This document shows, one piece after another, positions 9,304-47,106 of a stretch of 61,373 bases of DNA (positions within the stretch are counted from its first letter, which is position 1; every line of letters starts with the position of its first letter). The notes below the pieces were generated by a model that ran no database searches, was not told the origin of the DNA, and saw nothing but the letters and a program-made list of their open reading frames with translations. Source of the DNA: a virus; the UHGV virus genome UHGV-1597594, one strand, 5' to 3'. Position numbers and translations under genes: made by a program.

Positions 9304-9320
9304 ATATCATTATCTTTTTT

Positions 9321-11383: not shown

Positions 11384-11589
11384 CTTATTTATGATTTGAT
11401 GTCTTGTATTTATATTATATGTTGATATTGTACAACGCTAAGTGTCATTTTGCACTGTCGCCACCAATTTTTATTGATGGTGTTGCAAACAATGCAAGCA
11501 AACACCAGCCACTTTTAGTGACTGCACAAGCAACTGCTATTGCAGCAAAGAAGCTTGCATAAATGATTGCTGCAGCAAGCCAACTTGTT

Positions 11590-12992: not shown

Positions 12993-13007
12993 GTCGATTG
13001 ATATTTG

Positions 13008-13679: not shown

Positions 13680-13691
13680 GATTACAGCACA

Positions 13692-13728
13692 ACAAAAAAA
13701 GTCCGAGCAATGCTCGGACTTTTTTTGT
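13692..13728. terminator. bidirectional intrinsic terminator between convergent genes
   Basis: aaaaaaagtccgagcaatgctcggacttttttt: 9-bp perfect stem agtccgagc/gctcggact, 3-nt loop, A-run on one side and T-run on the other. Confidence 0.75.
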
Positions 13729-13742
13729 TGTGCACTGATTGT

Positions 13743-17048: not shown

Positions 17049-17081
17049 ATGCTTAAAATGTGATGTTTGAATATGTACAAA

Positions 17082-17116
17082 CAAAAAGACTGCTACAATA
17101 ATTTGCAGCAGTCTTT
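17082..17116 (-). terminator. intrinsic terminator downstream of CDS 17135-18028
   Basis: 8-bp stem agactgct/agcagtct with A-run 17082-17086, giving a T-run after the hairpin on the minus transcript. Confidence 0.5.
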
Positions 17117-17134
17117 GATAATTGTTTGTTTATG

Positions 17135-18028
17135 CTATGTCAATGCAATGAAGACGTCACCAGACTGTTCAGCTTCAAGCTCTTTTTCGACTTGTTGTTG
17201 CATTGTTTGACCTTTTGATGCAAGCCGGTCAAAGTTAATGCGAACATTGCCGGGCAACTTGAAGTCATATGTGCCAATGATATCTGCAAGCTCTTGCATG
17301 CATTGACCTGTGCAGTATCTCAAGAAACGTCTGTCTTCATACAATGATTGCAGCGGCACTCTTACCCAACACATCAACACCAAATCAGACCCTTCATTAT
17401 CACCAAGAACGTTCAGCTTATGACTAAATCTGTTGAAGTTATACGTGATTGTTCGTTGCAAAATGCTTTCATACGTGCCAATTTCATACATTGTCACCCA
17501 CAAGTCATCTGCAATTGATGCATTTTGAGAACCTGCAGGTCCAGCGTAGTTAAATGACACGCCATTCGCTTCACTATAAAAGTTAATTGAGTTGCTGAGC
17601 AGTCGTTCAAGATAAAAGTTTGCGCGCCGCATTGACAACTTATGTTGCGATTCAAGTAGTTGAACGTCTGATACAGCCCAAATTTGTGGCGGCAATTTGA
17701 CAATTTTGTTTGCGCCATCAGTCATGTCAATATTGCGAACAACAAACCAACGCTCTTCAAGAGCAGACTCAGAATGTTCAAAAAACCATTCTGCGCAAGT
17801 CTCAATGATTTGTGGCATACGAGTCTTCGGAATTGCAAATGGCAATGCGCAGCCTCGTGTGACTTCTTGTACAAGTCGCTCAATGAATCGCAAATCTACA
17901 CTGTAGTCATATCGAGAATTGATATTTTCGACTTCAGGCTTATTGCAATCATTTGTTGTTGCGCCTTCAACTTTCCAAGAAGTTGCGCCATCATTGAATT
18001 CTGCTTGTGGTTTGCGATTGACTTTCAT
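17135..18028 (-). CDS. hypothetical protein
   Basis: ATG at 18028; 297 aa; no motif. Confidence 0.6.
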   Translation of the reverse strand: MKVNRKPQAEFNDGATSWKVEGATTNDCNKPEVENINSRYDYSVDLRFIERLVQEVTRGCALPFAIPKTRMPQIIETCAEWFFEHSESALEERWFVVRNIDMTDGANKIVKLPPQIWAVSDVQLLESQHKLSMRRANFYLERLLSNSINFYSEANGVSFNYAGPAGSQNASIADDLWVTMYEIGTYESILQRTITYNFNRFSHKLNVLGDNEGSDLVLMCWVRVPLQSLYEDRRFLRYCTGQCMQELADIIGTYDFKLPGNVRINFDRLASKGQTMQQQVEKELEAEQSGDVFIALT

Positions 18029-18033
18029 AGAGT

Positions 18034-18513
18034 TTATCTTACAACAAGTTGAATGATCGGATTATTGTACACGTCCATTTTGAATAAGTCTTCGCCAGCT
18101 GTCATTAGCAATGCATCAAGAACCGCATTGCCAATGGGTGAATTCATAAACATTGACGTGCTATTAAGTGCCAATTCAGCCAAATACGTTGAAATGTCTA
18201 CATTGTCACCAGGTCGCATTTCCTGACGTATATAATAAGGATCGTTTGGATTATCCAAGTAATCATTCCAGCCAAAACCATCGGGCTGCTTAGTATAAGC
18301 AATATCAGTAAAACCAAGCTGTGCTCTATTATCATTGTCAAGTAACTTGTACCAAACTTGGCCATCAGCAGATACCATGTAGTTTGATGGCACAGTTAAG
18401 TTGTACTTTGATTTTGCTTGTGCAGCAGTTAATACGCCGCTTTCAAATGTGAAGCCAGCTGTTGCATGCATAGCATTTTGTGCTCTGTAATGTTCTTGAG
18501 TTACATGTGACAT
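18034..18513 (-). CDS. tail-fibre-like protein, paralog A (shared N-terminus MSxVTQ(E/D)HYRxQNA)
   Basis: ATG at 18513 gives MSHVTQEHYRAQNA..., matching the N-terminus of CDS 18582-19091; the C-terminal parts diverge. The tail-fibre role is inferred from the conserved-N/variable-C pattern and the neighbourhood. Confidence 0.6.
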   Translation of the reverse strand: MSHVTQEHYRAQNAMHATAGFTFESGVLTAAQAKSKYNLTVPSNYMVSADGQVWYKLLDNDNRAQLGFTDIAYTKQPDGFGWNDYLDNPNDPYYIRQEMRPGDNVDISTYLAELALNSTSMFMNSPIGNAVLDALLMTAGEDLFKMDVYNNPIIQLVVR

Positions 18514-18514
18514 A

Positions 18515-18570
18515 TATCTGAGTTTTTGAATGATTTGCAATAATTGACTTGCAAATCATTCAAAAACTCA
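18515..18570. promoter_or_regulatory. 56-bp perfect hairpin (24-bp arms, 8-nt loop) abutting the start codon of CDS 18034-18513
   Basis: tctgagtttttgaatgatttgcaa-taattgac-ttgcaaatcattcaaaaactcaga; the arms are exact reverse complements. Confidence 0.7.
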
Positions 18571-18581
18571 GATTTGCAAGC

Positions 18582-19091
18582 TTAATATGCGCATTGTATG
18601 CGATTAACTATTTCTGTATCGCCATCGCCAAAATACACATTGTGTTTAATGTTGTTTGTTATGTCTGTCAATACAGCTGTGCCATACCAGGTAATTTCTA
18701 CGTAGCGATTTAACGCTTCGTTAAGCAATGCATCGCTAAATTCCCAATTGTAAGCATTGCTAAATCTAAATGTGCAATCTTGAGAATAGCCTGGCACCAA
18801 TGTAATGGGCGCATTTGCAACGCATTTTAATGTGTTGCCTGCGGCAGATGTAAAAACAACTTCAAGTTGTACTTGAATGTTTTGCTTTGACTTATTTGTT
18901 AAACTTTGCACATCAATGTACAAAGATGATGCATTAACTGAAATGTTGTCATCAACTTTGTTATATGTGCAATTGCCAAAGTACATATCGCCATTTATCC
19001 AGCCTTCAGTCGTAATGGCATCTTCAGGCTTTATTACAGAACCCCCCCCCGCGTTTTGCGAACGATAGTGGTCTTGAGTTACACGTGACAT
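18582..19091 (-). CDS. tail-fibre-like protein, paralog B, with in-frame G9 tract near the N-terminus
   Basis: ATG at 19091 (MSRVTQDHYRSQNAGGGSV...); the GGG codons are a run of 9 G on the coding strand. Confidence 0.65.
   Translation of the reverse strand: MSRVTQDHYRSQNAGGGSVIKPEDAITTEGWINGDMYFGNCTYNKVDDNISVNASSLYIDVQSLTNKSKQNIQVQLEVVFTSAAGNTLKCVANAPITLVPGYSQDCTFRFSNAYNWEFSDALLNEALNRYVEITWYGTAVLTDITNNIKHNVYFGDGDTEIVNRIQCAY
19042..19050 (-). repeat. homopolymeric tract, C9 on plus strand = G9 on coding strand
   Basis: accccccccc at 19041-19050, inside codons 15-17 of CDS 18582-19091. Confidence 0.9.
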
Positions 19092-19117
19092 ATGAGTCTC
19101 ATTTTTATTGTATTTGT

Positions 19118-19162
19118 TTATCTATCAACTTGTGATTATCTCTATCTATCAACTTATGATTG
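19118..19162. repeat. two 19-bp direct repeats (tatctatcaactt(g/a)tgatt) in the upstream region of the tail-fibre-like gene
   Basis: Copies at 19118-19136 and 19144-19162, in non-coding sequence between 19091 and 19194. Confidence 0.7.
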
Positions 19163-19193
19163 TCTGTCTCTTATCAAAAGCTGCGCCATTGAC

Positions 19194-19805
19194 TTACGGT
19201 GCCACAATTGGTCCACCGCCAGGCAGACTTGAGCATGTTTGCATGTACAAGTACAACAAGTCGCCAATGTTCTGCATAATGTTTGCAAACATAAGTGCAA
19301 TGCCTCGCAAATCTGCTTCGCCTTCAAATGTGTTGATAAATGCTTGCTGAGCGCATGCAAACATTACTGGCACAGTCGATGCACTTGTCATTGCTATCAC
19401 AGGTCCGCCAGGCGACAAGGGCAACACCGGTGGCGATGCTGGCACAGTTAAGTTTGTCGGAATCCATGCTGCAACTGCTGCAGCATAAGGCTTAAAGCCG
19501 TTGCCAAACTTTATTGCAATGTTCTTTGGGTCTACTTCACCTTGAAATGTTTCTATAAGTGCTTGCCTGCCTGCTTCAAATAGAGAGCGCTCAAGTGTAG
19601 CAGTTGGACCTGCAATTATTGGACCACCGACAGGCAAACCTGCGCAAGTTGCAATGTAGCTTGCTACACCTGTAGCAAACAATTGACTGAATTTGTTGGC
19701 AAACTTTGTCGCAATTTGCGGTCTATCAAGCTCACCTTGAAAAGTTGCAGTGTATGCTTGATACGCAATGGGCTGCACAGCAGCTTGCAATGTAGCACCT
19801 GGCAT
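19194..19805 (-). CDS. hypothetical protein with three ~60-aa internal repeats
   Basis: Repeats containing TFQGE(L/V)D...IA(T/I)KF(A/G)N and LP(V/G)GGPI(I/V)A; start taken at an internal Met (MPGATLQ) to avoid overlap; start uncertain. Confidence 0.5.
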   Translation of the reverse strand: MPGATLQAAVQPIAYQAYTATFQGELDRPQIATKFANKFSQLFATGVASYIATCAGLPVGGPIIAGPTATLERSLFEAGRQALIETFQGEVDPKNIAIKFGNGFKPYAAAVAAWIPTNLTVPASPPVLPLSPGGPVIAMTSASTVPVMFACAQQAFINTFEGEADLRGIALMFANIMQNIGDLLYLYMQTCSSLPGGGPIVAP

Positions 19806-26819: not shown

Positions 26820-26909
26820 TGTTGTAGAGGTTTTATATTATATATGATTATATAATACAACAGTTGTGCAAATTTTGCACAACTGTTGTCAATAAAATGC
26901 AATTTTTGT

Positions 26910-27968
26910 TTATTGCTTCAAGCCTGTGAACAGTTCATACTTGAATGCCGGCGCTGCTGCGTAATCCTCAAAGTAGAAGTCACCAATGTTGATGCTAGCA
27001 ATAGCGTCATCGACTGCTTTCTTGTAGCCTACGCGTTCAATTGTCTGCTTATCGCATTTACGCCAATATGTGCTGTGCATCATAAGTGTGGGTGATGCAG
27101 CATAGTCTACTGCAAGCTGTTGTTTTGCAGTGTCAATGTGATGTTCATAGATGTGCACATCATTGCCAGTCCAAATGAACTCTCTTGCCACACAGTTAGT
27201 CAATGTTGCAACAATATGTGTAAGCAATGCATATGATGCGATATTGATGGGCACACCAAGACACATGTCACAGCTACGTTGAGTAAGCGCACAGTCAAGC
27301 CACATGCTTGGTACTTGAGCAGAATCAAGGCATTCTGCAGAGCCATCATGCACAAGCATGCTATCATTAGCAATCTGAATTCGTTCTTCAAGAGTCATTG
27401 GCTGACAATTGAACTGAAACAGCATATGACATGGCGGCAATGCCATCTGAGACATTTGCGCAGGATTCCATGCAGACACGACTTTGTAGCGGCCAGTTGG
27501 ATTGATGACAATGTCTTTAATGCAAGTTGCAAGTTGGTCAAATCCACTGTCATTGAAGTTGCGCCACTGATACCCATAGATAGGTCCGCAATCACCATAC
27601 TCAGGCTTGCTGAATTTTGTGTTATGCAGTTCTGTGCACCAAGTTTCAAAGTCGACATCTTCACCTGGATGCAGTTTACGCCAATGACGATATGCATCCT
27701 GATGCCAGAACTTTGTAATGCCAAGCGTGTCAAGCGTTTTTACATTTGTATCACCTGACATAAACCACAGAAGTTCTCCAATGACACCCTTGACAAACAT
27801 TCTCTTAGATGTTAACAGTGGAAAGCCTTTACGCAAATCAAATCGCATTGATTCTACGAACAGTGACTTTGTGCGAGGCATGTTTTCACGAGCAGGCTCC
27901 TTAAATCTGCCATGCTCAATAACATTGTTAAGTACTCTCAAGTACTCAGTGTCGTGTTTGATATTCAT
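26910..27968 (-). CDS. thyA: thymidylate synthase (ThyA family, uracil-type active site)
   Basis: ATG at 27968. ALPPCHMLFQF (catalytic Cys motif) and QRSCDMCLGVPINIASYALLTHIVA, retaining the Asn of PxNIAS that specifies dUMP in ThyA. 352 aa, with a ~40-aa insertion relative to bacterial ThyA. Confidence 0.8.
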   Translation of the reverse strand: MNIKHDTEYLRVLNNVIEHGRFKEPARENMPRTKSLFVESMRFDLRKGFPLLTSKRMFVKGVIGELLWFMSGDTNVKTLDTLGITKFWHQDAYRHWRKLHPGEDVDFETWCTELHNTKFSKPEYGDCGPIYGYQWRNFNDSGFDQLATCIKDIVINPTGRYKVVSAWNPAQMSQMALPPCHMLFQFNCQPMTLEERIQIANDSMLVHDGSAECLDSAQVPSMWLDCALTQRSCDMCLGVPINIASYALLTHIVATLTNCVAREFIWTGNDVHIYEHHIDTAKQQLAVDYAASPTLMMHSTYWRKCDKQTIERVGYKKAVDDAIASINIGDFYFEDYAAAPAFKYELFTGLKQ

Positions 27969-28655: not shown

Positions 28656-30533
28656 TCAAAAGCCTGCAAAGAAATCTGCATCAGCAGCATCTTGCTGCGG
28701 TGTTGACTCTTGTTCAATCACAAATCGACTGTGCAACTTTTGATTATGTTTTATGTATGGCATAATGCGCCGGATTGATTCGTCAATGACAAAAGTTTCA
28801 CACCAGTCATTTGCATGTCGAATGCCTCGACCAACTGACTGCACAAAGCTTTGATAACACTTATTGCGATACCAGCTTTCGTGATTTGCAGCCTTTGTTT
28901 TGACTACGATATCACCAAGTGACTGCCAAGGTAATTTTGCAACAATTTGACATCTACAACGATTGTCTGGTAAGTCAACGCCTTCAGTAATGCTAAAGCC
29001 TACAAGTACGTAGTTAGTGCCATCAGTAAGCATTGCAAGCTTATTTTGTTTGTCTTCAGCATTGACATATGTCAGCATTCTGCGTTTGTGCTTGCTGTTA
29101 TTGATGATATAGTTTGCAATGTCTCGTGTTGATGTATGTATGATGCAATTGCAGTCATGCGTGTCAAGAATGCTGTCAATTTTCTCGACAAGTCGAGGCA
29201 TATTTGCTGCTTTGTTTTTGTAACTCAATGACAATGCAGGTCTGCATAGTACAATGGGTGATTTGCTAAAATCCCAATCAGGCTCCATATAGAATGCCAC
29301 GTAGTTTTTGATGCCATTGAGTGTAGCAAATGTGTCAATATCACCAATTGTCGCTGACATCCACAATTGCGCATGCGTAGCATCACTATGATGCACCAGT
29401 GTATTTGCAAGAAGTTCGTCATTGACACATTTGAATTGCAAGCTGTTTGTTGCAGCATCAAGTACTACAAGCATGTCACCAGGTGATTGTTCAGTTGCAT
29501 CAAGCATTGTAATGATTGAATATGACAACGTATCACAGCTGGCAACAAAGCGAATGAACGCTTTCTCAAATTGACCAAGTTGTTTACCAGAATCCTGAAG
29601 TTCACTTAGCTTTTCATATGCAGTATGCAAAAAGTCTACAAGTTCTGACAACTGCTGTGCAAGCACTCTTGCTTCTGCTCGCATTGTTGCAATGTCATAT
29701 TGTGTTGTTGCAAGCTTAATGACTGCTTTGACTTGTGCAAACACATTGTTGCGAAGTTCTACATATTTGTTCTGATTTTCAAGAGTCATGATACCTGCAA
29801 TCAGTGACTCGGCCTTTGTGCAATTCTGAATGAATCGAGGACCAATTGACGTGTCAAGAAAGCCTGACAAAATGTCATCAATTTTATGACACTCATCGAA
29901 TATCGTCAATTCACGAGGCCCAAATAAGTTTTTGACGCAATTAACTTGTATCAGCCAGTATGCATAGTTAAGCACAGTGCAATTTGCTGCAGCAGCCTTT
30001 TGACGAGTCTGCAAATATGCGCATTTAGGTCCGCATGGCAATGCAAGAGCTTTCTTTGATGACAGACCATCTTGCTGACATTTACCCATGCTGAATGGCA
30101 GCCCATTGACATGACAAATGTAATTGTCTCGACCTTTGAGCATTACACAACTTCTGAATGCTGAAGTAGTTGTGTCTGCTTTAGCATTGTTGTCGTACAA
30201 ATATTGCTGAATGAACTTGTCATACTGGTCTTGCAGCAGTTTATCAGAAGTCAGCACGTATGACTTAAAGAACGTCGCGCAAAACATCGCAACCACAGAT
30301 TTTCCCGTTCCAGTCGCTCCCTGCAATATGACATTTTGCCCATTTGCAATTGCTCGAATAATGTCGATGATTAGATGACGCTGAGTTGCATCAAAACGCG
30401 CTTGGTCCCACTTGCATGTCTTTGATTGCGCAAGATATGCTGAGAATTTATCAATATGTGCTACAATAAGCTCATCAAGTTCTTGCTGAGATTGCTCTTC
30501 TGTCTTGTGTTCTACTGACGTTAGTCTACCCAT
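28656..30533 (-). CDS. DinG/Rad3-like superfamily-2 DNA helicase
   Basis: ATG at 30533. Walker A GATGTGKS, DECH box (LTIFDECHKID), four-Cys cluster between them (C..C..C..C) as in the Fe-S domain of DinG/XPD helicases. Confidence 0.8.
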   Translation of the reverse strand: MGRLTSVEHKTEEQSQQELDELIVAHIDKFSAYLAQSKTCKWDQARFDATQRHLIIDIIRAIANGQNVILQGATGTGKSVVAMFCATFFKSYVLTSDKLLQDQYDKFIQQYLYDNNAKADTTTSAFRSCVMLKGRDNYICHVNGLPFSMGKCQQDGLSSKKALALPCGPKCAYLQTRQKAAAANCTVLNYAYWLIQVNCVKNLFGPRELTIFDECHKIDDILSGFLDTSIGPRFIQNCTKAESLIAGIMTLENQNKYVELRNNVFAQVKAVIKLATTQYDIATMRAEARVLAQQLSELVDFLHTAYEKLSELQDSGKQLGQFEKAFIRFVASCDTLSYSIITMLDATEQSPGDMLVVLDAATNSLQFKCVNDELLANTLVHHSDATHAQLWMSATIGDIDTFATLNGIKNYVAFYMEPDWDFSKSPIVLCRPALSLSYKNKAANMPRLVEKIDSILDTHDCNCIIHTSTRDIANYIINNSKHKRRMLTYVNAEDKQNKLAMLTDGTNYVLVGFSITEGVDLPDNRCRCQIVAKLPWQSLGDIVVKTKAANHESWYRNKCYQSFVQSVGRGIRHANDWCETFVIDESIRRIMPYIKHNQKLHSRFVIEQESTPQQDAADADFFAGF

Positions 30534-30553
30534 TCTAAATGAGATTTAGATTA
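30534..30553 (-). promoter_or_regulatory. palindromic leader element abutting the helicase start codon (second copy at 37459-37477)
   Basis: tctaaatgagatttaga (7-bp arms, 3-nt loop) begins 1-3 nt from the ATG; the same 20-22 nt occur before the SbcCD-like gene. Confidence 0.5.
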
Positions 30554-30648
30554 TTTGTAAAGATATAATACTACAAACAGCACACATTTGCACTTTGACA
30601 TAACTGATTGAGTATCAATCAATTATGAGTTTATAAAAGTTTTTCAAA

Positions 30649-30750: not shown

Positions 30751-30784
30751 AAGCAAGCAGACTGCAATTGCAATCTGCTTGCTT
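30751..30784 (-). terminator. terminator hairpin downstream of CDS 30807-31163; near-identical copy at 47033-47060
   Basis: aagcaagcagactgca-at-tgcaatctgcttgctt (16-bp arms, one mismatch); T-rich run follows on the minus transcript. Confidence 0.5.
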
Positions 30785-31166: not shown

Positions 31167-32048
31167 CTATCGTTTGAATTTGATGAAGTGTTCAGCATCA
31201 AGGCCCTCGAATACATACGGGTCAAGAGTTTCCCAGAAGTTTGAGTATGTCGTTGTCTTTGCAATGCTTGTTTGCTTTGACAAGTTCATATTTGGGTAGC
31301 CAAGCATTGCATAGTGTCGCTCATATATGTGCATTGACGTCGCATTATGCACATATGCGCCAAGCTTAAGACCAAGTTCATTTGCGACAAGTTCTTGCAA
31401 CAAAGTGAATGCAAACTGGTCGTTACAGAAGCCCCAAATGACATCATTGCTTCGCATGTATGTTGTCAAGTACAGCTTATCACCACGAACATTAAAGACA
31501 AGATTCAATGTGCATGGCATGTCTTTGCCAGTGTAGTTTGCATATTGTGGCTCATAAATGCTAATAACTGCTCGTCTTGTGCATTCATGATTTCGCAAAC
31601 GTTCAATGACATCTGCAATCTGCTTATGCCAAATTGCACCATACTGCGAATTGACATTGACATCATCATCACTGAACTGCTTCCAGCGAGGCAAATAACG
31701 TTCAATGCATTCAACTGCAGGATTGGCTGTCATGTACCATGCAAATTCTGCTGCAGCATTGAGCTTTTTCCATGGTCGTACATCAATCTTGATTTGTCGC
31801 TGTGAAGGGTCCTGAATAACTACAGACACATTCAGCAATTCTTTTGTTCGAGTCACTGTTTGTGCATTGTTGCCCTTTGATTCTACAAACTCACCTCTAC
31901 AATGAAGTTCATACAAAATTGAGCGAAATGCTTCTGTTGCAGTGTTTTCAATGATTGTCGTCTGTTGATAACATAAATTTGACGACAATGATTCAGCATC
32001 ATTGTACTTTATGCTGTCATTGTTATAAGGTGAATTTTTTGTGTGCAT
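31167..32048 (-). CDS. ThyA-family pyrimidine hydroxymethylase-like enzyme (candidate dCMP hydroxymethylase)
   Basis: ATG at 32048. MPCTLNLVF (catalytic Cys region) and YMRSNDVIWGFCNDQFAFTLL align gap-free with ThyA RSCDVFLGLPFNIASYALL; Asp replaces the specificity Asn. Confidence 0.7.
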   Translation of the reverse strand: MHTKNSPYNNDSIKYNDAESLSSNLCYQQTTIIENTATEAFRSILYELHCRGEFVESKGNNAQTVTRTKELLNVSVVIQDPSQRQIKIDVRPWKKLNAAAEFAWYMTANPAVECIERYLPRWKQFSDDDVNVNSQYGAIWHKQIADVIERLRNHECTRRAVISIYEPQYANYTGKDMPCTLNLVFNVRGDKLYLTTYMRSNDVIWGFCNDQFAFTLLQELVANELGLKLGAYVHNATSMHIYERHYAMLGYPNMNLSKQTSIAKTTTYSNFWETLDPYVFEGLDAEHFIKFKR

Positions 32049-32069: not shown

Positions 32070-33167
32070 TTATCGTACAACGACAGTATCTCGTTTGCAA
32101 TCTGTTCTGTCAAATATCGAGCAACAATATGATGCAGATTGCTCTTTGATTGCAAGAGCTTCGTCATTGTCAAGTGATGAAATGCCATCTATGTATGCTT
32201 TTGCATTACCAGCAATATCATCATTTGTTAACAACGCTGCACGACGTTCAGCACCAAAGAAGCCAAAGCACAATTGACGCTGCAATGCTTCACGAGAAGT
32301 CTTGTCATCAAACTCGGATTTCATGTGTTGCATAAATTCGACAATGTCATCAATGTCACATTGAGTAAAGTCAATGTACAATTTATGCATATACTTGAAT
32401 CGTTTGTAGTCTGTTGCAAGAATTTCTGGATGTGCAATGAACAGCGTCTTTTTGCTATCTATTGGATTTGCAATGACTGACGCTTGAACATAATCAACAA
32501 GCATGCCAGATTTATGAAGCTGTTCAACTGTTTTGCCAAATACATGACCAAGTGTGTCATCAAACCACTTCAAGTACATTTCGCTGTCTTCATCTTTTGA
32601 TGCGCCAACAATGTAAATCTCATTGACTCCAAGTGCTTTGAGACGAATATCAGACAACATAGTGTTCAACTGATGCTGCACATATAGCATTGGGCTACTA
32701 TGCAAAACTGTCTTGACAATCTCACAAGCAATGTCCATATATGCATAGTCAAGCTTTGCAGATTTTGATACATATGCTGCACGTTGTTGCAATGGCTCAA
32801 TTGCAGAACATGTGGTCACAAAGTTGCCCACACATTCTGCTACTGCAATGTCATGCAAGTCATCTGCAATGTACACAATACTTGACAAATCATCAAATGT
32901 CTGTACAAGCTGCTGAAGCTTCGTTTTGTAATTGCAGAGCATCAATGACTTGATGTTGCAATTGCCAAGCATTGTCTTGATGAGTCGTTGACCTGCTTCA
33001 GTGCTATCACCAGAAATGACATGTACGTCGCAGTCAAACCAGTTCAGCATGTCAATTGCATGTCGAACACCATATTGCATTTGCTTTGCAAACTTACCAG
33101 ATTCATTGAACAGCATTTCACCTGACATAATGCCGTCAAAGTCACATACGATTTGAAGTCTGTCCAT
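32070..33167 (-). CDS. HAD-superfamily phosphatase (KdsC-like N-terminal domain) with an uncharacterised C-terminal domain
   Basis: ATG at 33167. VCDFDGI (HAD motif I), ISGDS, YIADDLHD (motif IV-like) in the first ~170 aa; about 190 further aa without a recognised motif. Confidence 0.6.
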   Translation of the reverse strand: MDRLQIVCDFDGIMSGEMLFNESGKFAKQMQYGVRHAIDMLNWFDCDVHVISGDSTEAGQRLIKTMLGNCNIKSLMLCNYKTKLQQLVQTFDDLSSIVYIADDLHDIAVAECVGNFVTTCSAIEPLQQRAAYVSKSAKLDYAYMDIACEIVKTVLHSSPMLYVQHQLNTMLSDIRLKALGVNEIYIVGASKDEDSEMYLKWFDDTLGHVFGKTVEQLHKSGMLVDYVQASVIANPIDSKKTLFIAHPEILATDYKRFKYMHKLYIDFTQCDIDDIVEFMQHMKSEFDDKTSREALQRQLCFGFFGAERRAALLTNDDIAGNAKAYIDGISSLDNDEALAIKEQSASYCCSIFDRTDCKRDTVVVR

Positions 33168-33171: not shown

Positions 33172-33504
33172 CTACAATTTTGAAGTTAAGTCAATTCGAA
33201 TTTTGTCTGCGTTACTTTGGTCAACAAATCTGTCATCAAAGAAGCATTCAACTACGACAAGCTTCTTTGAATTCACAAATTCGATTAGCGATTTTTGCAT
33301 TGCATCAAGTTGCTTCATGCATTTACAAAAGCTGCTGTATGACATGATTTGCTTTGGTGACATATCAAATGCGTCTGCGATTCGCTGATGCGCAATCTTT
33401 TTTGATGTTGCAATAATGACATCTGCTTTGTTGTCATTTGCATGATTGCCAAATATCGCAATATGGTAAACTTTCATTGTATGAGTGATTTTGCTGTTAT
33501 ACAT
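33172..33504 (-). CDS. hypothetical protein
   Basis: 110-aa ORF; no motif. Confidence 0.45.
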   Translation of the reverse strand: MYNSKITHTMKVYHIAIFGNHANDNKADVIIATSKKIAHQRIADAFDMSPKQIMSYSSFCKCMKQLDAMQKSLIEFVNSKKLVVVECFFDDRFVDQSNADKIRIDLTSKL

Positions 33505-33531: not shown

Positions 33532-36500
33532 TTAACAAATTGATGACGTGCCATCAGTATTTGCTACAACTGTCAATGCACTATCAAACTCATCTTGTTG
33601 CAATACATGGTCAACTATGAGTGTTTTGCGAATTGCAGAAAGTTTGGTAAGCAATTGCATCAGCACTTGCTGATAATTGATATTGTTGACATCATGCTCA
33701 GCGCCAACAATCTGCCCATTGCTAAGCTTGCCACTGATTTCATCAATGAGCAAGATGTTGCCAACTTTGTTTAAGCGTTGAGTCAAAATGAGATGCACGA
33801 TTGCAAGACCTGCGAAAGTCCCTTCCATGCCAGACATTTGACTTACGCTTCTAATTGACTTCGAACCCATCAAGTCAATCATCTTCAGCACATTGTTGTC
33901 ATTGATGTCAAAGAACACTCGGTAGTTCAATGAATCCAGCAAATCATTGAGCTGTACATTCAATGATGTTGCAATTGCTGCAAAGACATATGAAACTAAG
34001 CCTCGTTTGCTTGTGCACTGCTTATATGCATTGTACACCAAGTTTGCAATGTTCCACTTTTTAGAAGCTTGCAAATCTTTCTTGAGAGCTTCAATTCGCA
34101 CATTGTTTGCTGACAAGTCTGCTTGCATTGTTGCAATTTCTGCATTGATGCTTAGCAGTTTTGAGTTTGCTTCAGTTTCATGCTGCTTAGCATCATCAAT
34201 GTCGACTTGCAATGCAGCATTTGCTGCAATATGCTGCTGAGTTTGCTGCGCATGTTCAAGTGCAAATGCTGCAGCAGTCTTATCAATCTCAAGTTGTTTA
34301 AGCGCAGACTCATATGTCGCTTTCTTGTCATACTCTATTTGAGCAATTTCAAGTTCAGCATTTATTGCAGCCAGTTCTGATTCTACTGCAGATTTTGATT
34401 GCAATACATCTTGCTTTGCTTGTTCAGCTTTACGTTTGATGTCTGCAAGTTGATTTGTGATATCTGCAATTTGTGTTTTGACTGCTTCGACTTCAAGCAA
34501 TGTTGCTGCAGTAGCTATTGGTTGTGCAATGAATGCGTCTAAGTCTCTTTGCGCATTGACTACAGTTCTCTGCAAATCATTGAGCTTTTCTGCATGCATA
34601 TCATATGCAGCTTTATGTGCTGGATTCAGCGCAGCAATAATTGCATTTGAATCTGTGACATCAATGACTGTTGCTTGCAATTGCTCAATTTCATACTTCA
34701 AATTGCCAATTTTGACAACATTCTCATTGAATTGCTCTGTTTTTTGTGCACATTCTTGACGCAACTTAGCAAGCTCAGTTGACAGCCACAGCTTGTATGC
34801 TTGTCCTGTGCCAGATGTCAAGTCATTTGTACATACAGGGCATTTGTCGTTTTCAAGTTGCTTTTGCTTGTCTATAACATTGTCGATGTTTGTTTTTGCA
34901 GCAGATACTTCTGTTCTAAGCGCATTTTGAACAGTGTTGATGTCTTCAATTTGCTTTTGCAAAGCATCTATTTTTGCCCGAGTGTTTGCATTGTACGACT
35001 TGCCAAGATTTATCAGCACAGAATCAATGTGCTGCTTTGCTGCATCATATGCAAGCTTTGATTCATCAAGCTTTGTTCTGTACAATAACTCTGCATGCGC
35101 AACTTCTTTCTGCACTTTTGCAGATAGCTCATTCTGTTTTGTAAGCAGCTCAGCATATGTATTGTGCAGCTGTGAGCCAGATGCTATGACATTTGTGTAT
35201 GCTGCATTAGCTTCATTGTCAATATTAGTGAGTTGTTGCTCAATCTGCGCTTTTACTGTTTGCAATTTAGACATGTCTTGCAATGCAAGTGCAGCAATGT
35301 CAAGCTCAACTTTGCGAATCTTTGCAACGATGCTATCGATATTTGCTGTTGCATCTTCTACAGTTAAAATATCTGCAGAAATTTGATGCAGTCTTTTTGA
35401 GAGCTCTTCTACTTTTGCACGTGCTTTTGTAAGTTTTGCAGACCACTCTTTTTGATTATCTTGTCGTAACTGCAAAGAGTCATTGAGTTCATTGCAAGTT
35501 GTATTGAGAGACTCAAGTTCTGCTTTTATTGCGACATCAGTCAACGCAGGTTTGCTAAGACCATCAAACAATGCAGCTTTTGCAGCATCATTAGAATTGC
35601 CGAGCTGCACAAATGTATTGATGCCAAGAGTATCAAGCAACCAGTCATTCAATGAATTTGAGTCCATTGCAATGATTTGGTCAAGCAATGTCTGATTGAT
35701 GCATACATATCGCGACAATTCCCATATAGAGCCAAAGATTGCATATAGTGTGTCTTTGATTTCATGCTGCGGCACTGCATAGTCATCTGACAATCGCACA
35801 AGTTGCACAGTCTCATTAACTGTTGACACATTGTCTCGCCATGAGCCATCTGCATTTATTCGAGAACCTCGTTTGAATTTGCGCTCAAGTGTTCGAGTCA
35901 ATTTGTAATGCACATTTTGACCCGCAACTACATGCACAAACACACAAGAAGCTTCAAGCTTGTCATATGACTCATTGTCAATCAACTTGTCATTGAAGTA
36001 CGTCAAAGCATTCTGCTTTGTTGCTGCAGAAGACTGTCCAGCGTCAATGAAGCCAGTCAATAGCCATTTAATAAGCCTAAAGATTGTTGTCTTGCCATTG
36101 CCATTGTTGCCTCTAACTTGTGTAAGTTGCGCAAGATTGTCAAAGCTAACATCAACATCTTTCAATGCCATGAACTGATTTGCTTTAACATTTTGAATGA
36201 CATATTTTGCAACTTCAGTGTCAAAAGACAATTTATCAATTTGTTCATCAATCAATGACTTGAACATGTCAACAAACTGCTGAGCGTCTTCAGTAGCAAC
36301 TATAGCATTGCGTTCAATGTACGCATTGACCCAGTCAAGTGCAGCATCTTTAAGCCATTCAGCAGTTTGAACTTTTTGCAGCAAATTGTCGCCATTTGCA
36401 TCTACAGCATTGATTGAATCAATGACAGCAGAATCATACAGAATGTCAATTGCGGCAACAACGTATGAACTTACAAGATTCTGTGCAATGCGCTCAACAA

Positions 36501-37458
36501 TACCAGACAGTTCGGGCTTTGTGACCTTTGACTTGATTTTGATTTTGTTGATGCGACCAGGATTGATGAGTGCAATCTTATCTGTTTTGATGTCATTGTC
36601 AATTGTGATTGTATGATAATGCACAAGCTGCTCAAGTGGATGCCACTCTGCACCAATTCGCTTGTTGTCAATATCGATGTCAAGCAAGTTGTAGCCATGT
36701 TCTGCAGTGCCCTGTTGCATTGCAGTGTCATTCAACAAATAGTCGCCTTCACCAAAATCTCTGACAATTGGCGAGCCGCAGTATGTTAATGTCTTGGTGC
36801 CAGAAGTCCATATTGCATGTTTGTGAATATCACCCATTGCAACAAAGTTGCTGTGAAACTGTGTTGCATCTATACGACTGTCATTGTCACCACGAACAAT
36901 ACAATCATCAAAGTTGACACAATTCTTTACTGGGTCATGGAACAGCTCAATGACACACATTGATGACAATGCTGCAATCTGCGATTCATCAAGTGATGCC
37001 CAAGGCGAATATGTGCCACCAGACCACTTCTCATTTTGAGCCCACACAGCAGCAGCAAAACCAGGTGCAAGCAATTCAACTCTTGAGCTATTGATGTATT
37101 TGATTCGCTTATCATCAATTGCAGTCACAAGCTTATCAATACTGTCTGTCCACTGCATTTGTGAGCCATCACCAGCATCAAATGTGTTATCACGTTGCTT
37201 CAAATCATGATTGCCTGCAGTGATAACGATTTGAAGCTTGTCATTGACTTCAAGCATGCCTTTGAGCAACTTAACAAACAGCGACTCTTCAAGTGAATTG
37301 CTGTTCCAATGCTCAAACACATCACCAACAATAAACACTAGCTCAACTGACTTTGCTTTGTCAATCAGTTGTTTGTTGATATACTCGTATTCTACAAAAC
37401 GTCGTAAATGCCCTTGTCGAACATTATATTGAATGTCTGCTATGTGAAGTGCTTTCAT
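33532..37458 (-). CDS. fused SbcD/Mre11-like phosphoesterase and SbcC/Rad50-like ATPase (single 1308-aa polypeptide)
   Basis: ATG at 37458. N-terminal HIADIQYN, VGDVFEHW, ITAGNHD (calcineurin-like phosphoesterase motifs); then Walker A GNNGNGKTT, a long coiled-coil region and C-terminal ILLIDEISGKL (Walker B/D-loop). Confidence 0.8.
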   Translation of the reverse strand: MKALHIADIQYNVRQGHLRRFVEYEYINKQLIDKAKSVELVFIVGDVFEHWNSNSLEESLFVKLLKGMLEVNDKLQIVITAGNHDLKQRDNTFDAGDGSQMQWTDSIDKLVTAIDDKRIKYINSSRVELLAPGFAAAVWAQNEKWSGGTYSPWASLDESQIAALSSMCVIELFHDPVKNCVNFDDCIVRGDNDSRIDATQFHSNFVAMGDIHKHAIWTSGTKTLTYCGSPIVRDFGEGDYLLNDTAMQQGTAEHGYNLLDIDIDNKRIGAEWHPLEQLVHYHTITIDNDIKTDKIALINPGRINKIKIKSKVTKPELSGIVERIAQNLVSSYVVAAIDILYDSAVIDSINAVDANGDNLLQKVQTAEWLKDAALDWVNAYIERNAIVATEDAQQFVDMFKSLIDEQIDKLSFDTEVAKYVIQNVKANQFMALKDVDVSFDNLAQLTQVRGNNGNGKTTIFRLIKWLLTGFIDAGQSSAATKQNALTYFNDKLIDNESYDKLEASCVFVHVVAGQNVHYKLTRTLERKFKRGSRINADGSWRDNVSTVNETVQLVRLSDDYAVPQHEIKDTLYAIFGSIWELSRYVCINQTLLDQIIAMDSNSLNDWLLDTLGINTFVQLGNSNDAAKAALFDGLSKPALTDVAIKAELESLNTTCNELNDSLQLRQDNQKEWSAKLTKARAKVEELSKRLHQISADILTVEDATANIDSIVAKIRKVELDIAALALQDMSKLQTVKAQIEQQLTNIDNEANAAYTNVIASGSQLHNTYAELLTKQNELSAKVQKEVAHAELLYRTKLDESKLAYDAAKQHIDSVLINLGKSYNANTRAKIDALQKQIEDINTVQNALRTEVSAAKTNIDNVIDKQKQLENDKCPVCTNDLTSGTGQAYKLWLSTELAKLRQECAQKTEQFNENVVKIGNLKYEIEQLQATVIDVTDSNAIIAALNPAHKAAYDMHAEKLNDLQRTVVNAQRDLDAFIAQPIATAATLLEVEAVKTQIADITNQLADIKRKAEQAKQDVLQSKSAVESELAAINAELEIAQIEYDKKATYESALKQLEIDKTAAAFALEHAQQTQQHIAANAALQVDIDDAKQHETEANSKLLSINAEIATMQADLSANNVRIEALKKDLQASKKWNIANLVYNAYKQCTSKRGLVSYVFAAIATSLNVQLNDLLDSLNYRVFFDINDNNVLKMIDLMGSKSIRSVSQMSGMEGTFAGLAIVHLILTQRLNKVGNILLIDEISGKLSNGQIVGAEHDVNNINYQQVLMQLLTKLSAIRKTLIVDHVLQQDEFDSALTVVANTDGTSSIC

Positions 37459-37480
37459 ATTCTAAATGAGATTTAGATTA

Positions 37481-37550
37481 TATGTTGATATTGTACAACA
37501 TGCAAAATGCACTTGCATTTTGATGCAAAGTACAGTGTACACAACATGCA
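37481..37550 (-). promoter_or_regulatory. two tandem promoter-like motifs upstream of the SbcCD-like gene; the second is a diverged copy of the 44-bp repeat unit at 1-132
   Basis: tatatgttgatattgtacaacatgcaaaatgcac and tgatgcaaagtacagtgtacacaacatgca (28/30 identical to positions 1-30 of the repeat unit). Confidence 0.45.
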
Positions 37551-37555
37551 AAATG

Positions 37556-37903
37556 TCATTTTGCAAGCATTTTGCTGATTGCATCTATCACAGTTTCACT
37601 GAGCAAGTAGTAGACAACGCTTATCAGCAATGATATCAGTACTGCAGCTGTGATAAATTGCAACGCATTCATAATTGCACGCACAAATGTTATTTGCGTG
37701 TTGTATGCAAGCACTATGCAGCATAACATAATGATGATACACCACACTACAATTGCATATGCAGGCAGCAATGAATTTGTCCATATGCAGTACAATGCAG
37801 TAGTTAGCATCAAAAATGCTATTGCTCTGATGACTGACACAATGATGTCTATGTAGGGCTTCATTGCACGTAAATGAACTCTTGGCTTATGCGGTTTCAT
37901 CAT
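37556..37903 (-). CDS. small membrane protein
   Basis: 115-aa ORF, mostly hydrophobic. Confidence 0.5.
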   Translation of the reverse strand: MMKPHKPRVHLRAMKPYIDIIVSVIRAIAFLMLTTALYCIWTNSLLPAYAIVVWCIIIMLCCIVLAYNTQITFVRAIMNALQFITAAVLISLLISVVYYLLSETVIDAISKMLAK

Positions 37904-39132
37904 GACTTTATGTACAATTCTGCAAGTTGTCTGGTGTACAGTCGTGGATTATGATATGCTTTCCAATATGCAGTAGACTTTATTGCAGCAAGAATCTCAT
38001 CATAATGTTTGACTGCTTCTGCTACAACTTCATCAAGCACGCTCAAATCTTCTACACTGACAAGCAACCATTTTTCTACAATATCAATGAACTCCTGATT
38101 GCAATTGAAGCCATACTTGTAGTTGCAAGTGTCAAGTACAAGTGGAATGCAATCATTTGTCAATGCTTCAAAAAATCTACGAAGACTGAAACAATTCTCA
38201 TCATATGATGGAATGCTTAATGTAAACTTGGCAGTCTTGATGAGTTGCAAATACTCTTCATATGGAATCAGAGGACCATTGTGCTTCCACTGATTGTTAT
38301 GTCGTCTTGTTGTGTACTTGAACAAAAACTTTGAACTGTCAAGCTCACAAAGATGGTCCATGCGTAAAATGTAGTTATAGCGGTCTCTTCTATCAGGCCA
38401 ACTGTCAGTCATTGCAAACACAAAGTCTCTTTGCTTGTCACATTTTGCTGACATGCCTCTATGCTGACACATGCAATACCAATATTGCTGTGATGGACTG
38501 AACTCGAATTTTGAGTGATGTTCGCTTCCATCTTTGCATTGTTGAACGTAAATATTGTCAGGCACAAAGTGAAAATAGAAGTGTCGAATTTGCAAGCCGT
38601 CAATGTAGTCAAGCTTATGCTGCAATGGGTCTTCACAGAAATTGTAACATTGAATGTGCTTTACTGCTGCATACTCAGCAACTATGAATGTGCACATCCA
38701 TTGCAATGCAATATCTTCACTTTTCAAAAAGTCTACAAGCGGTTCGTTTGGATGCGCTTTGCATTCATTGAACATTTTGTACCACTTGCACTGCTCCATA
38801 TCGTACTTTGAGACTGTATTGCCATTAAAGAATGACACAGTGTCAATTTTGAATGCATCAAGCTGTTTATGCACAATGTCAAGTGCTTGTGCATATGTGA
38901 TTGTCTCATCAGACATTATCTGCGCAAACTTGATTGGATATGCATGCAAATTTGCGATAGTGTCTGCTGACATTTTACGCTGTGTATGATAATCGACATA
39001 CAAAAACTGACATTTATCTGTAAGCAATTCAAGCATTGCTACAGATTTCCATCGAATTGCTTGAAAGAAATTGAAGTGCGCAGTTTGAAAAATGAGATGC
39101 GTAGGCTTGTCAGAATGAGTCAAAGTTTGCAT
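37900..39132 (-). CDS. GT-B-fold glycosyltransferase-like protein (paralog X1)
   Basis: ATG at 39132 (track start 39138 is TTG). C-terminal PSYDENCFSLRRFFEALTNDCIPLV fits the GT-B/GT4 signature PSxxExxxxxxxxEAxxxGxPxV; EDPLQHKLDYIDG and SPSQQYWY are shared with CDS 42133-43689. Confidence 0.6.
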   Translation of the reverse strand: MQTLTHSDKPTHLIFQTAHFNFFQAIRWKSVAMLELLTDKCQFLYVDYHTQRKMSADTIANLHAYPIKFAQIMSDETITYAQALDIVHKQLDAFKIDTVSFFNGNTVSKYDMEQCKWYKMFNECKAHPNEPLVDFLKSEDIALQWMCTFIVAEYAAVKHIQCYNFCEDPLQHKLDYIDGLQIRHFYFHFVPDNIYVQQCKDGSEHHSKFEFSPSQQYWYCMCQHRGMSAKCDKQRDFVFAMTDSWPDRRDRYNYILRMDHLCELDSSKFLFKYTTRRHNNQWKHNGPLIPYEEYLQLIKTAKFTLSIPSYDENCFSLRRFFEALTNDCIPLVLDTCNYKYGFNCNQEFIDIVEKWLLVSVEDLSVLDEVVAEAVKHYDEILAAIKSTAYWKAYHNPRLYTRQLAELYIKS

Positions 39133-40295
39133 GGACAAATGTCGCAGTTATGTTGATGTTTGTGTTTATTTATGAAGTCATATGTCACTGCAAAAAAGTG
39201 CTTTGCAATGTCATATCGAGTTTTCAAATATGACGCTTGGCGTTCACAAAACGCTGCATAAATGTCTGGGTGTTGTTTGAATGCAGCAATGCGTTGCTGT
39301 ACTTGTTCTGCAGAATGTACATATGACACTTTGCTCAAATATGCATCATCTGCAAATAATCGTCTGTCTTTGTCAACTGCGCAATCAACAAAAGTTGCAA
39401 TTCGTGCAACAATGGCTTCACCAACACGATTTGGCATCAACCCATATTGCTCATATTGTTGGTCACCAATAGCAATGTGTGCTGCTGCATATGACATTGC
39501 ATATGGCACACTATAAAATGGCACGCTAAAATCAAATGAGCAATTTGACTGTAGTAGTTGCGCTTGTGCATCAGACAATCTACTTGTCAAGTTGCCTGTA
39601 TGTTTGTGCTCACCAAGAAAACTTGAGCGACAACCTGAATCTACATAGTATCGAATGACTTTGTTTATGCGACTGTCAGATAGCATATGCCAATCTCTTG
39701 TAGCATATATCAAGTCTACTGTTTTTGCACCAATATGACGAGGCTCTATCGCAACATTGCTGTACGTTGGTAGCATGAACAATGGCAGCCATTTGACATT
39801 GTTGAACACTGAATGCTCATTTGACAAATTCATGCACTGGCTAAGTTCAAGTACTGGCTCATCATACACGCCATGTAGCTCAACTCTGCCTGCATGCACA
39901 AAGTTGACACGCTTAAATGGGAATCGCATGTCAGTACAAATTGTCATTCTTGCTGCAGTAGACATTCGCCACATAGCATGCAGCTTAACAACTGCTTCTG
40001 CTTGAGGTCGAGGCAACATATTTAGCAAATCAATCCAGCCACCCCACAAAATCCAAACATCATTTGAACAGATGTTGAATTGCAAACTCAATATGTCTTC
40101 TACTGTTGCAGCAATGATGTCATGCCCATTGATGCTTGCAAGGTGCTTTCGTTGATTTGCAATAAGAATGACTTGGCTGAATGGAGACTCTGGAAATGAC
40201 ACAAGCGCTTTTGCAAACAACACGGGTTCTTGCGACACCAAGTTGTTTGAGTATGGGTCGATTATGCAATCAAGCTTGTGTATGAAGAGTCTCAT
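39120..40295 (-). CDS. hypothetical protein (paralog Y1 of 43686-44855)
   Basis: 391 aa; shares AHIAIGDQQYEQYGLMPNRVGEAIV with LVVGDSLYVQAGLLPNRWVEGVL of CDS 43686-44855. Confidence 0.55.
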   Translation of the reverse strand: MRLFIHKLDCIIDPYSNNLVSQEPVLFAKALVSFPESPFSQVILIANQRKHLASINGHDIIAATVEDILSLQFNICSNDVWILWGGWIDLLNMLPRPQAEAVVKLHAMWRMSTAARMTICTDMRFPFKRVNFVHAGRVELHGVYDEPVLELSQCMNLSNEHSVFNNVKWLPLFMLPTYSNVAIEPRHIGAKTVDLIYATRDWHMLSDSRINKVIRYYVDSGCRSSFLGEHKHTGNLTSRLSDAQAQLLQSNCSFDFSVPFYSVPYAMSYAAAHIAIGDQQYEQYGLMPNRVGEAIVARIATFVDCAVDKDRRLFADDAYLSKVSYVHSAEQVQQRIAAFKQHPDIYAAFCERQASYLKTRYDIAKHFFAVTYDFINKHKHQHNCDICPCKL

Positions 40296-41026: not shown

Positions 41027-41514
41027 ATAACGTTATATCATATCTACACACAAAGCAAATGCTACTGCAAGTGCAGCCATAATTGCATATATGACTATTG
41101 ATGCAGTATAATCTGATTCAGGATTCCACTTATCAGGTGTGTTAAGCTTGTGATACTTGTCTCGTCTCATCTTGAGTCAAAAAATGATGGCTGCTGCTAC
41201 ATTTTGTGAAATCATGTGCAGCAGCCATCTGGCAGGTTTCTTGCTTTGTAAAGCTTGGATAGAGGATGGATTTTATATGTTGATATTGTACAACATATAT
41301 TGTCATTTTGCACAGTCTGATGCAATCAAATCTTTGTCAAAACATTCATCTATAATGTCTTCAATAAGATACGCTTCGACATTGTTAAGCTTCAAGATAT
41401 CTACGAGTTTTGCTTTGATATCGCAAGCTAATGCAGATTCAACTGTATGCAATATGACTGATGATGCGACATGCTTGTCTGTCATCATTTGTAATTGCTG
41501 TGGTGTTACTCTAC

Positions 41515-46945: not shown

Positions 46946-47032
46946 ATTGTTTTATCATATATGAATATATTGTACAACATAAAGCGCATACTTGCACTTT
47001 GTGTTGCTAAAAATATCGTCATTGTACACAAA

Positions 47033-47060
47033 ACAAGCAGGCTGCAATTGCAGTCTGCTT
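47033..47060 (-). terminator. terminator hairpin downstream of CDS 47107-47652 (copy of the 30751-30784 element)
   Basis: caagcaggctgca-at-tgcagtctgcttg; followed on the minus strand by the promoter-like box and the start of the gene at 46945. Confidence 0.5.
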
Positions 47061-47106
47061 GCACTTTACTAACCCTTAAAATCAATGACACTATGTCAAT
47101 GTCATT

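Follow-up and report, generated by a model that had tools for sequence, protein, structure and literature searches.

An identical palindromic leader at two genes

The DNA analysed here is a stretch of 61,373 nt (the window) from the virus genome UHGV-1597594, in which nearly all genes are located on the minus strand. Two of these minus-strand genes share a short palindromic leader, referred to below as element A. One of them (28656-30533) codes for a DinG/Rad3-like helicase of 625 amino acids (aa) with the Pfam domains Helicase_C_2, DEAD_2 and ResIII, and the other (33532-37458) for a fused SbcD-SbcC nuclease of the Mre11-Rad50 type (SbcCD), which is 1308 aa long and contains the domains Metallophos and AAA_23. 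The domain matches uphold the identities assigned to the two genes in an earlier, sequence-only reading of the window, and both start codons are backed by conserved N-termini in the orthologs (MG... and MK..H). The replication and nucleotide module of the window is T4-like, with a gp32-like single-stranded DNA-binding protein, a family B DNA polymerase, dUTPase, MazG, dCMP deaminase, thymidylate-synthase-like proteins and thioredoxin, and syntenic relatives carry a gene similar to T4 gp13. The virus is probably a distant T4-like phage from gut metagenomes with a host among the Bacteroidota. The window matches a metagenome scaffold (ENA label ZEEV15-1) whose sample name suggests the human gut as its source.

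As transcribed, the two leaders have in common a block of 23 identical nucleotides, ATAATCTAAATCTCATTTAGAAT, which is located at 30532-30554 and 37459-37481 on the minus strand; the former copy runs into the helicase ATG, whose A and T form its last two bases. Within the block lies a perfect palindrome with arms of 7 nt and a centre of 3 nt (TCTAAAT-CTC-ATTTAGA as transcribed, TCTAAAT-GAG-ATTTAGA on the plus strand). It directly adjoins the start codon of the helicase (palindrome 30534-30550, ATG 30533-30531) and is separated by the two nucleotides AT from that of SbcCD (palindrome 37461-37477, ATG 37458-37456), where an inverted repeat with 11-nt arms and one mismatch (37457-37467 and 37471-37481) takes in the A and U of the AUG. 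The sequence-only reading had reported an identical palindromic leader at these two genes, and the 23-nt block with its perfect palindrome in two exact copies bears this out. The element lies where it had been placed, although its extent had been given as 20-22 nt (30534-30553 and 37459-37477), and it abuts the ATG of the helicase as claimed but not that of SbcCD.

The element had also been described as absent before other genes, and the motif search that had been suggested as a check agrees with this for the window. The 19-mer CTAAATGAGATTTAGATTA is present in exactly two copies (plus strand, 30535-30553 and 37462-37480), and a search of the window that tolerated up to 3 mismatches gave no third copy. 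The number expected by chance is 0.03, and two or more copies were obtained in 0 of 100 shuffles. An all-against-all comparison of the 24 nt preceding 70 starts gave a score of 21 for the helicase and SbcCD pair and 17 for the next pair. The palindromy also exceeds what the base composition would give, with an equally good fold in 5 of 200 shuffles as RNA and in 2 of 200 as DNA. The identity extends from ATAAT to the ATG and ends abruptly on either side, and the flanks are unrelated at the two genes, which are not paralogs. Element A is non-coding: there is an in-frame stop codon 15 nt upstream of the helicase ATG, and a plus-strand ATG within the element opens 9 codons at one site and 55 unrelated codons at the other, so that a coding function was rejected. 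Scans with Rfam and for tRNAs found nothing.

Promoters, leader structure and strain variation

A sigma70-like promoter of the form (G/T)TGCAA-N17-TAyAAT, often ..TGTTGTACAATAT, recurs throughout the phage upstream of genes (aligned by eye). The looser pattern TGCAA-N16-18-TAyAAT-like gave 20 matches on the coding strand and 5 on the other strand, compared to 1.9 in shuffles. Both genes with element A have such a promoter on the minus strand, TGCAAA-N17-TATTAT at 30565-30592 for the helicase and TGCAAG-N17-TACAAT at 37490-37517 for SbcCD, and the palindrome begins 14 nt and 12 nt, respectively, after the -10 hexamer. With transcription taken to start 6-8 nt past the -10 box, the predicted 5' untranslated regions (UTRs) are about 25 nt long and consist nearly entirely of element A. 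The upstream operon is closed by an intrinsic terminator, a hairpin followed by a T-run at 30754-30782 (minus strand), and since this precedes the helicase promoter, the helicase is the first gene of its transcript. Two other promoter assignments were rejected. The T4 late promoter motif (TATAAATA) occurs only once on the coding strand and not at the element A sites, and TAGAAT at the end of element A, taken as a -10 box in a generic sigma70 scan, scored no better than shuffles and would place the start of transcription inside the genes.

RNA structure prediction, which had been proposed as a further check, recovered the stem-loop in both leaders. The 7-bp stem with its 3-nt loop has an energy of -3.1 kcal/mol alone and about -6 kcal/mol with flanking pairs, and the minimum free energy of the SbcCD leader is -5.7 kcal/mol. 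In the helicase leader the left arm pairs A-14 to A-12 and the right arm covers -7 to -1, while in the SbcCD leader the arms are shifted 2 nt further upstream, with the A-run at -16 to -14 and the right arm at -9 to -3. The region from -18 to +3 has a predicted accessibility of 0.20 at SbcCD and 0.30 at the helicase (median 0.58), the second and fourth lowest values of 70 starts; the lowest value was obtained for a mis-called TTG start inside a terminator. According to these predictions, the initiation regions of the two genes are the least accessible among properly called ATG genes. This fits the earlier suggestion that a stem-loop occupies the ribosome-binding region, except that the hairpin is weak and that there is no Shine-Dalgarno (SD) site to occupy, none of the 55 ATG genes in the window having an SD core.

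In these 55 genes A is found at 65% at positions -13 and -12, and the combination of SD-less starts with A-12 and A-13 matches the signature of the Bacteroidota (PMC3155529, PMC6847099). For F. johnsoniae, a stimulating effect on translation has been described for A-12, A-13, A-3 and A-6, and less is translated when the initiation region is structured (PMC6847099). Hairpins placed just 5' of the AUG in Prevotella bryantii yielded relative protein levels of 1.08 at -2.1 kcal/mol, 0.12 at -5.2 kcal/mol and 0.007 at -11.1 kcal/mol, so that a hairpin of about -5 kcal/mol in this position corresponds to about 8-fold less protein, whereas a hairpin of -9 kcal/mol at -21 had no effect (PMC3155529). 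An effect of element A on translation is mechanistically credible given these hairpin data and because initiation without an SD sequence needs an unstructured, A-rich leader.

Near-identical strains differ in the presence or absence of a second module, B, directly 5' of element A. In the window, element B (ATAATATATGTCCTCATATATTCGAAC, 13278-13304 on the minus strand) is located in the leader of a gene for a 78-aa membrane protein and forms the hairpin AATATATG-TCCT-CATATATT (-4.9 kcal/mol). Across strains the module is 27-28 nt long (ATAATATATGTTCTCATATATT(T)CGAAC, with the hairpin AATATATG-TYCT-CATATATT) and is flanked by ATAAT direct repeats; it is significantly palindromic in comparison with shuffles and is present in at most 3 copies per genome of about 175 kb. 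Both leaders contain A alone in the window and in L148, and both contain B followed by A in the IMG/VR genome 152288. The combined form is confined to the SbcCD leader in L146 and to the helicase leader in the IMG/VR genome 149023 and in ERR1999775. It is also found at the helicase of L157, for which the SbcCD leader was not sampled, and apart from the module, L156 and L157 match the window exactly in the helicase intergenic region. Module B was noted at the helicase leaders of L005, L006 and L156 and at the SbcCD leaders of L007 and L146.

In each of the 11 leader copies sampled from 6 strains, a gap of 0 or 2 nt separates element A from the ATG. Its distance to the -10 box is 12-14 nt where B is absent and about 39-41 nt where B is present. 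The constant distance to the ATG fits an RNA function anchored at the start codon better than a DNA function anchored at the promoter. Module B is always more than 20 nt from the ATG, a distance at which the Prevotella data would lead one to expect no influence on translation. The simplest mechanism for its gain and loss would be hairpin-stimulated slippage between the 5-bp ATAAT repeats, and recombination between the two leaders with A as the homology would be an alternative.

The exact 20-mer was found only in the two IMG/VR genomes, each of about 175 kb with two copies, in which the helicase and the N-terminal SbcCD proteins are 97-99% identical to those of the window. Searches of IMG/VR recovered only these two near-identical genomes, even with a profile of distant helicase homologs. 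A scan of metagenome contigs with the 19-mer gave 12 matches, all in unrelated contexts as expected by chance, and a degenerate palindrome scan of IMG/VR was uninformative, with at least 120 chance matches. No match to GenBank phages was obtained in a megablast search with 9.4 kb, and for the helicase, the nearest cultured relatives (tblastn), about 30% identical, belong to Chryseobacterium and Tenacibaculum jumbo phages. Among syntenic relatives, the leaders in L009 contain other short palindromes that are not common to the two genes and are no better than shuffles, and the leaders in L010 and L012 contain none. In L151 a different hairpin, ATAAT-CCTACTCAAATAGG (ATCCTA-CTCAAA-TAGGAT, -5.4 kcal/mol), is located just after the -10 box of SbcCD, 36 nt from the ATG. 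Judged by its distribution, element A is recent and confined to one phage species. About 10% of the aligned columns in the surrounding 22 kb or so vary among the strains that keep it.

The promoter class has further members on the minus strand at 4462-4489, 6508-6535, 11427-11454, 13315-13342, 26852-26879, 32072-32099, 41285-41312, 44886-44914, 46969-46996 and 59257-59284. Such a class is odd in an SD-less phage, given that promoters of the Bacteroidota normally differ, and it points to a sigma factor or an activator specified by the phage, or else to a host outside the Bacteroidota. Several of the promoters are followed by the conserved initial transcribed sequence CAACATATAAT (37480-37489, 11416-11426, 41275-41284 and 44876-44885, minus strand), which holds a consensus -10-like TATAAT at about +2 to +8 that could act as a sigma-dependent promoter-proximal pause signal. 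Upstream of SbcCD (37503-37565, minus strand) a promoter-like sequence is present twice in tandem, each time with a palindromic -35 region (TGCAAAATG-N-CATTTTGCA), and strains 152288 and L146 have a deletion of one of the two copies. A palindrome with 13-nt arms and a 3-nt centre, CATAAyTGATTGA-NNN-TCAATCAGTTATG, is located at 30599-30627, with 5 nt between it and the downstream -35 box of the helicase, and is unique in the window. Its arms are perfect in strain 152288 and its centre is inverted there (GTA versus TAC), which makes it a candidate site for an activator or repressor, or a candidate product of palindrome-mediated inversion.

The terminator upstream of the helicase promoter is repeated almost identically (GCAAGCAGAyTGCAATTGCAGyCTGCTTG followed by a T-run) at 47034-47062 on the minus strand. 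Both copies are intergenic and located just upstream of a promoter, an arrangement like that of the promoter-early stem-loop (PeSL) cassettes. Downstream of the consensus promoter at 41285-41312 there are about 100 nt (approximately 41170-41280, minus strand) in which no start codon looks plausible and which end in the strong terminator GATGGCTGCTGCA...TAGCAGCAGCCATC plus T6. This segment is a candidate small RNA or micro-ORF (open reading frame), and the 54-aa ORF at 41142-41306 is probably spurious. A second family of leaders, AAAyCTCTAC(a/t)ACA-ATG, precedes three unrelated genes (13245-13261, 26820-26836 and 59218-59234, minus strand). The sub-motif AAAYCTC-N7-ATG is common to element A and three other leaders, and 5 of the 8 occurrences of AAAYCTC on the coding strand are located 7-9 nt before a start codon.

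Possible functions of element A

We tentatively favor the interpretation that element A is an RNA hairpin anchored at the start codon, which attenuates the translation of the helicase and SbcCD and resides within recombining promoter-leader cassettes; we consider this plausible, if slightly short of probable. Each gene would be transcribed from its own sigma70-like promoter, and almost the whole of the short 5' UTR would be taken up by the hairpin UCUAAAU-CUC-AUUUAGA. At the helicase, its left arm would tie up the A-tract at -14 to -12, which would substitute for the SD sequence in this system. The right arm would mask -7 to -1 at the helicase or -9 to -3 at SbcCD, and flanking pairs would extend the structure to the A and U of the AUG. 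Since SD-less initiation needs an open leader, the hairpin would lower, and equalize, the translation of the SbcCD-type nuclease and the DinG-like helicase, two enzymes that are potentially DNA-damaging in excess. If a protein bound the hairpin, such an attenuator would become a genuine operator. That the two copies are identical is most likely the outcome of recombination between promoter-leader cassettes.

Several observations weigh against this interpretation. The core hairpin of -3.1 kcal/mol falls between the points of no effect and strong effect in the Prevotella series, and longer contexts of the helicase leader fold no better than shuffles (z = -0.12 and -0.64). Element A is absent from the syntenic relatives L009, with a helicase 63% identical to that of the window, and L010 and L012 (about 45%), and in L150-L152 the helicase gene is located inside an operon without a leader of its own. 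Because the element is missing from relatives, there is no evidence from covariation. The strains that keep it are 97-99% identical in the two proteins, so that zero changes in 23 nt are perhaps not significant. Strains without B also keep A at a fixed distance from the promoter, and promoter anchoring is possible for these alleles. Finally, the start of transcription rests on the position of the -10 box, and the host is one that we infer.

Transcription rather than translation would be the target if a dimeric protein of the phage or the host bound the 17-bp dyad TCTAAAT-N3-ATTTAGA, at about +6 to +24, and co-repressed the two genes by blocking promoter clearance or elongation. The dyad is perfect and has an odd central spacer, which is the geometry of many helix-turn-helix (HTH) operators. 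It is located 12-14 nt after the -10 hexamer at both window promoters, and module B is located 10-12 nt after the -10 box in its three contexts, so that the promoter-proximal slot is always palindromic; other dyads, such as several palindromic -35 regions and the 13+3+13 dyad upstream of the helicase -35 box, also occur near promoters. We nevertheless regard a DNA operator, although it is a serious competitor of the attenuator, as unlikely. In the alleles with B, element A is shifted to about +33 to +50, unchanged and still at the ATG, each promoter has one site and not a tandem array, and searches of the 78 window proteins (Pfam) and of 10 small neighbors (PHROGs), which represent about a third of the genome, revealed neither an HTH nor any other DNA-binding domain. 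The identity also reaches into the non-symmetric loop and the flanks, which an operator does not require, although a recent duplication would give the same result. The promoter-proximal position could alternatively reflect a hairpin that shields the 5' end of the mRNA from 5'-end-dependent decay with no role in initiation. A palindrome, be it A or B, is always present 10-14 nt after the -10 box and thus a few nucleotides from the predicted 5' end, and the hairpin of the relative L151 is similarly located right after the -10 box, 36 nt from the ATG. However, the AU-rich stem has little stability, the majority of promoters in this class lack a hairpin, and the alleles with B keep A at the ATG, where it is no longer 5'-proximal, all of which makes a stabilizing function highly improbable.

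Element A might also have no regulatory role and be the footprint of ectopic recombination or gene conversion between cassettes, retained only because a leader of some kind is required, its palindromy being incidental or serving recombination. Near-exact copies of promoters and terminators recur around the window, other leader families such as AAAyCTCTACaACA-ATG are common to unrelated genes (three in this case), and indels between strains are concentrated in the cassettes (a promoter copy before SbcCD, and B between ATAAT repeats). The element is also species-specific, and the PeSL cassettes of T4-type phages behave alike (PMC2839356, PMC4122927). Against this stand the sharp boundaries of the identity, from ATAAT to the ATG at two non-paralogous genes, and the significant palindromy of both A and B. 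Moreover, element A produces the least accessible initiation regions of the window, contrary to the outcome of selection for a generic leader in this phage. A mere relic therefore seems quite unlikely.

The sequence-only reading had proposed a translational operator comparable to those of T4 gp32, gp43 and RegA. A hairpin at the AUG in the predicted 5' UTR is in line with this proposal, but the repressor that it calls for lacks support: no RegA (Translat_reg) or other RNA-binding domain, and no HTH domain, was found by Pfam in the 78 window proteins, which derive from about 61 of about 175 kb. An RNA operator, at which a phage protein binds the hairpin in both mRNAs for a timed shut-off of translation in the manner of RegA, gp43 and gp32 or of the coat proteins of RNA phages, shares the evidence from position, fold, accessibility and SD-less initiation with the attenuator. 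It would also account for the exact identity of loop and flanks at two unrelated genes of one functional class, and the marginal stability of the hairpin is what a switch stabilized by a protein would need (PMC3155529). The window encodes T4-like replication proteins, including the gp32-like single-stranded DNA-binding protein and the family B polymerase. Yet there are only two targets, the element is not kept in relatives that have both genes, and the T4 RegA sites are unstructured (PMC3014915), and we consider a protein-bound RNA operator to be rather improbable.

Candidates for a trans-acting partner were rejected. The putative small RNA at about 41170-41280 is not notably complementary to the two leaders, which rank 17th and 46th of 54 by the energy of their duplexes with it. 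The neighboring proteins of 118 aa and 115 aa are hydrophobic and mutually unrelated. The 110-aa ORF at 33172-33504 contains an HTH-looking stretch but has no database homolog beyond its own species cluster; a counterpart with 39% identity is present in L009, which is without element A, and the single-sequence AlphaFold model is too poor to use, with a predicted local distance difference test (pLDDT) score of 53. It is conceivable, but again improbable, that a phage protein not recognizable as such binds the hairpin on both mRNAs and co-times SbcCD and the helicase by locking the A-tract, which would amount to a species-specific post-transcriptional regulon. To our knowledge, which does not include a targeted literature search, this would be the first RegA-like translational regulon in an SD-less phage-host system, and the alleles with and without B would then provide ready-made spacing mutants.

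If the hairpin does attenuate translation, it is a compact example of initiation control in phages of SD-less hosts such as the gut Bacteroidota, with the A-tract and the start codon masked instead of an SD sequence, and one module copied between promoter-leader cassettes would couple two DNA-processing enzymes. The natural alleles (A/A, A/BA, BA/A and BA/BA for helicase/SbcCD) form a test set for distinguishing action at the RNA level from action at the DNA level. If element A is a mere recombination footprint, it would extend the shuffling of PeSL-like cassettes to a very distant T4-like lineage. The reach of either outcome is limited by the confinement of the element to one uncultured phage species.

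Neighboring features and comparison with known systems

Some other features of the window are of interest in their own right. Matches to the family B DNA polymerase domain fall into two distinct ORFs (window 1-18540, alignment A2 members), and the polymerase may be split. Two thymidylate-synthase-like genes and genes for dCMP deaminase, dUTPase, MazG and GT47-like glycosyltransferases cluster with the replication genes (26910-27968, 31167-32048, 37900-39138, 39120-40295 and neighbors), which suggests a hypermodified DNA base. The segment at 18650-19200 is hypervariable between otherwise close strains and may encode a receptor-binding or fiber protein. It contains a homopolymer run of strain-dependent length, which could reflect phase variation or assembly noise; homopolymers were noted at 19042-19050 (C9), 60567-60576 (C10) and 60751-60760 (G10).

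The operators of HTH repressors of the lambda, 434 and P22 type are dyad-symmetric. Element A resembles this class, whose dyads are about 14-20 bp, in being a perfect 17-bp dyad near a promoter. It differs in its location downstream of the -10 box and of the predicted +1, whereas the sites of that class overlap the -35 box, the -10 box or +1 and so shut out RNA polymerase, in being a single site that is displaced by 27-28 bp in some strains, and in that no repressor gene was found among the window proteins. The hairpin promoters of N4-type phages have a stem of 5-7 bp and a loop of 3 nt and are read by a phage-encoded single-subunit virion RNA polymerase. The 7-bp stem and 3-nt loop of hairpin A correspond to this geometry. 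No RNA polymerase domain was found in the window, and a conventional promoter is already present directly upstream. Repetitive extragenic palindromic (REP) sequences and miniature inverted-repeat transposable elements (MITEs) are a poor parallel, since A is present in 2 and B in at most 3 copies per genome of about 175 kb rather than in many dispersed copies.

Parallels are also found among the translational controls of T4. The RegA sites are unstructured and loosely conserved, and the operators of gp43 and gp32 are autogenous and located on their own mRNAs, that of gp43 containing a hairpin (PMC3014915). As in these systems, a cis element is located at or next to the AUG of replication and recombination genes in a T4-like phage, and as in the RegA regulon, one element is common to more than one mRNA, the block lying 0 or 2 nt before the start codons of two genes. 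Unlike the RegA sites, element A forms a perfect 7-bp stem with a 3-nt loop, and unlike the gp43 and gp32 operators it precedes only the helicase and SbcCD genes, even with 3 mismatches allowed, and not the PolB or gp32-like genes of the window. The targets and the sequence are unrelated to those of T4, and no cognate repressor was found among the 78 window proteins. Taken as membership in these systems, the T4 analogy of the sequence-only reading fails on the unstructured RegA sites and on a gp43 operator that acts on the mRNA of the polymerase itself (PMC3014915), and what is left is a likeness in function.

Intrinsic hairpins that sequester initiation regions in the T4 family, for example at mobE of phage Aeh1 (cited in PMC3014915), and the hairpins studied in the Bacteroidota are similar in that a stem-loop in cis covers the initiation signals and lowers translation without a protein. 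In the present case the masked signal would be the A-tract at -14 to -12 of the helicase leader instead of an SD sequence, and the same hairpin is found at two unrelated genes. The surrounding cassettes resemble those known as PeSL in T4-type phages (Arbiol et al. 2010, PMC2839356; Comeau et al. 2014, PMC4122927), with which they share a repeated intergenic sigma70-like promoter with N17 spacing in a T4-like genome. In both, a stem-loop accompanies each promoter in a variable position, either over the -35 box or downstream of the -10 box, and the cassette reaches the start codon. Here, A and B are downstream of the -10 box, and palindromes cover the -35 box at 37503-37522, at 37547-37565 and at other promoters. 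PeSL cassettes are also hot spots for indels between close strains, as are these leaders with their B module and promoter-copy indel. On the other hand, PeSL stem-loops are mostly G/C-rich and terminate or attenuate upstream transcription, whereas element A is AU-rich with one G-C pair and no T-run, a terminator scan found nothing at either of its sites, and it is located within the transcript at the AUG, in two copies per genome and in an SD-less host system. Element A is thus new as a variant that joins two known themes, leader hairpins that mask initiation regions and PeSL-like cassettes.

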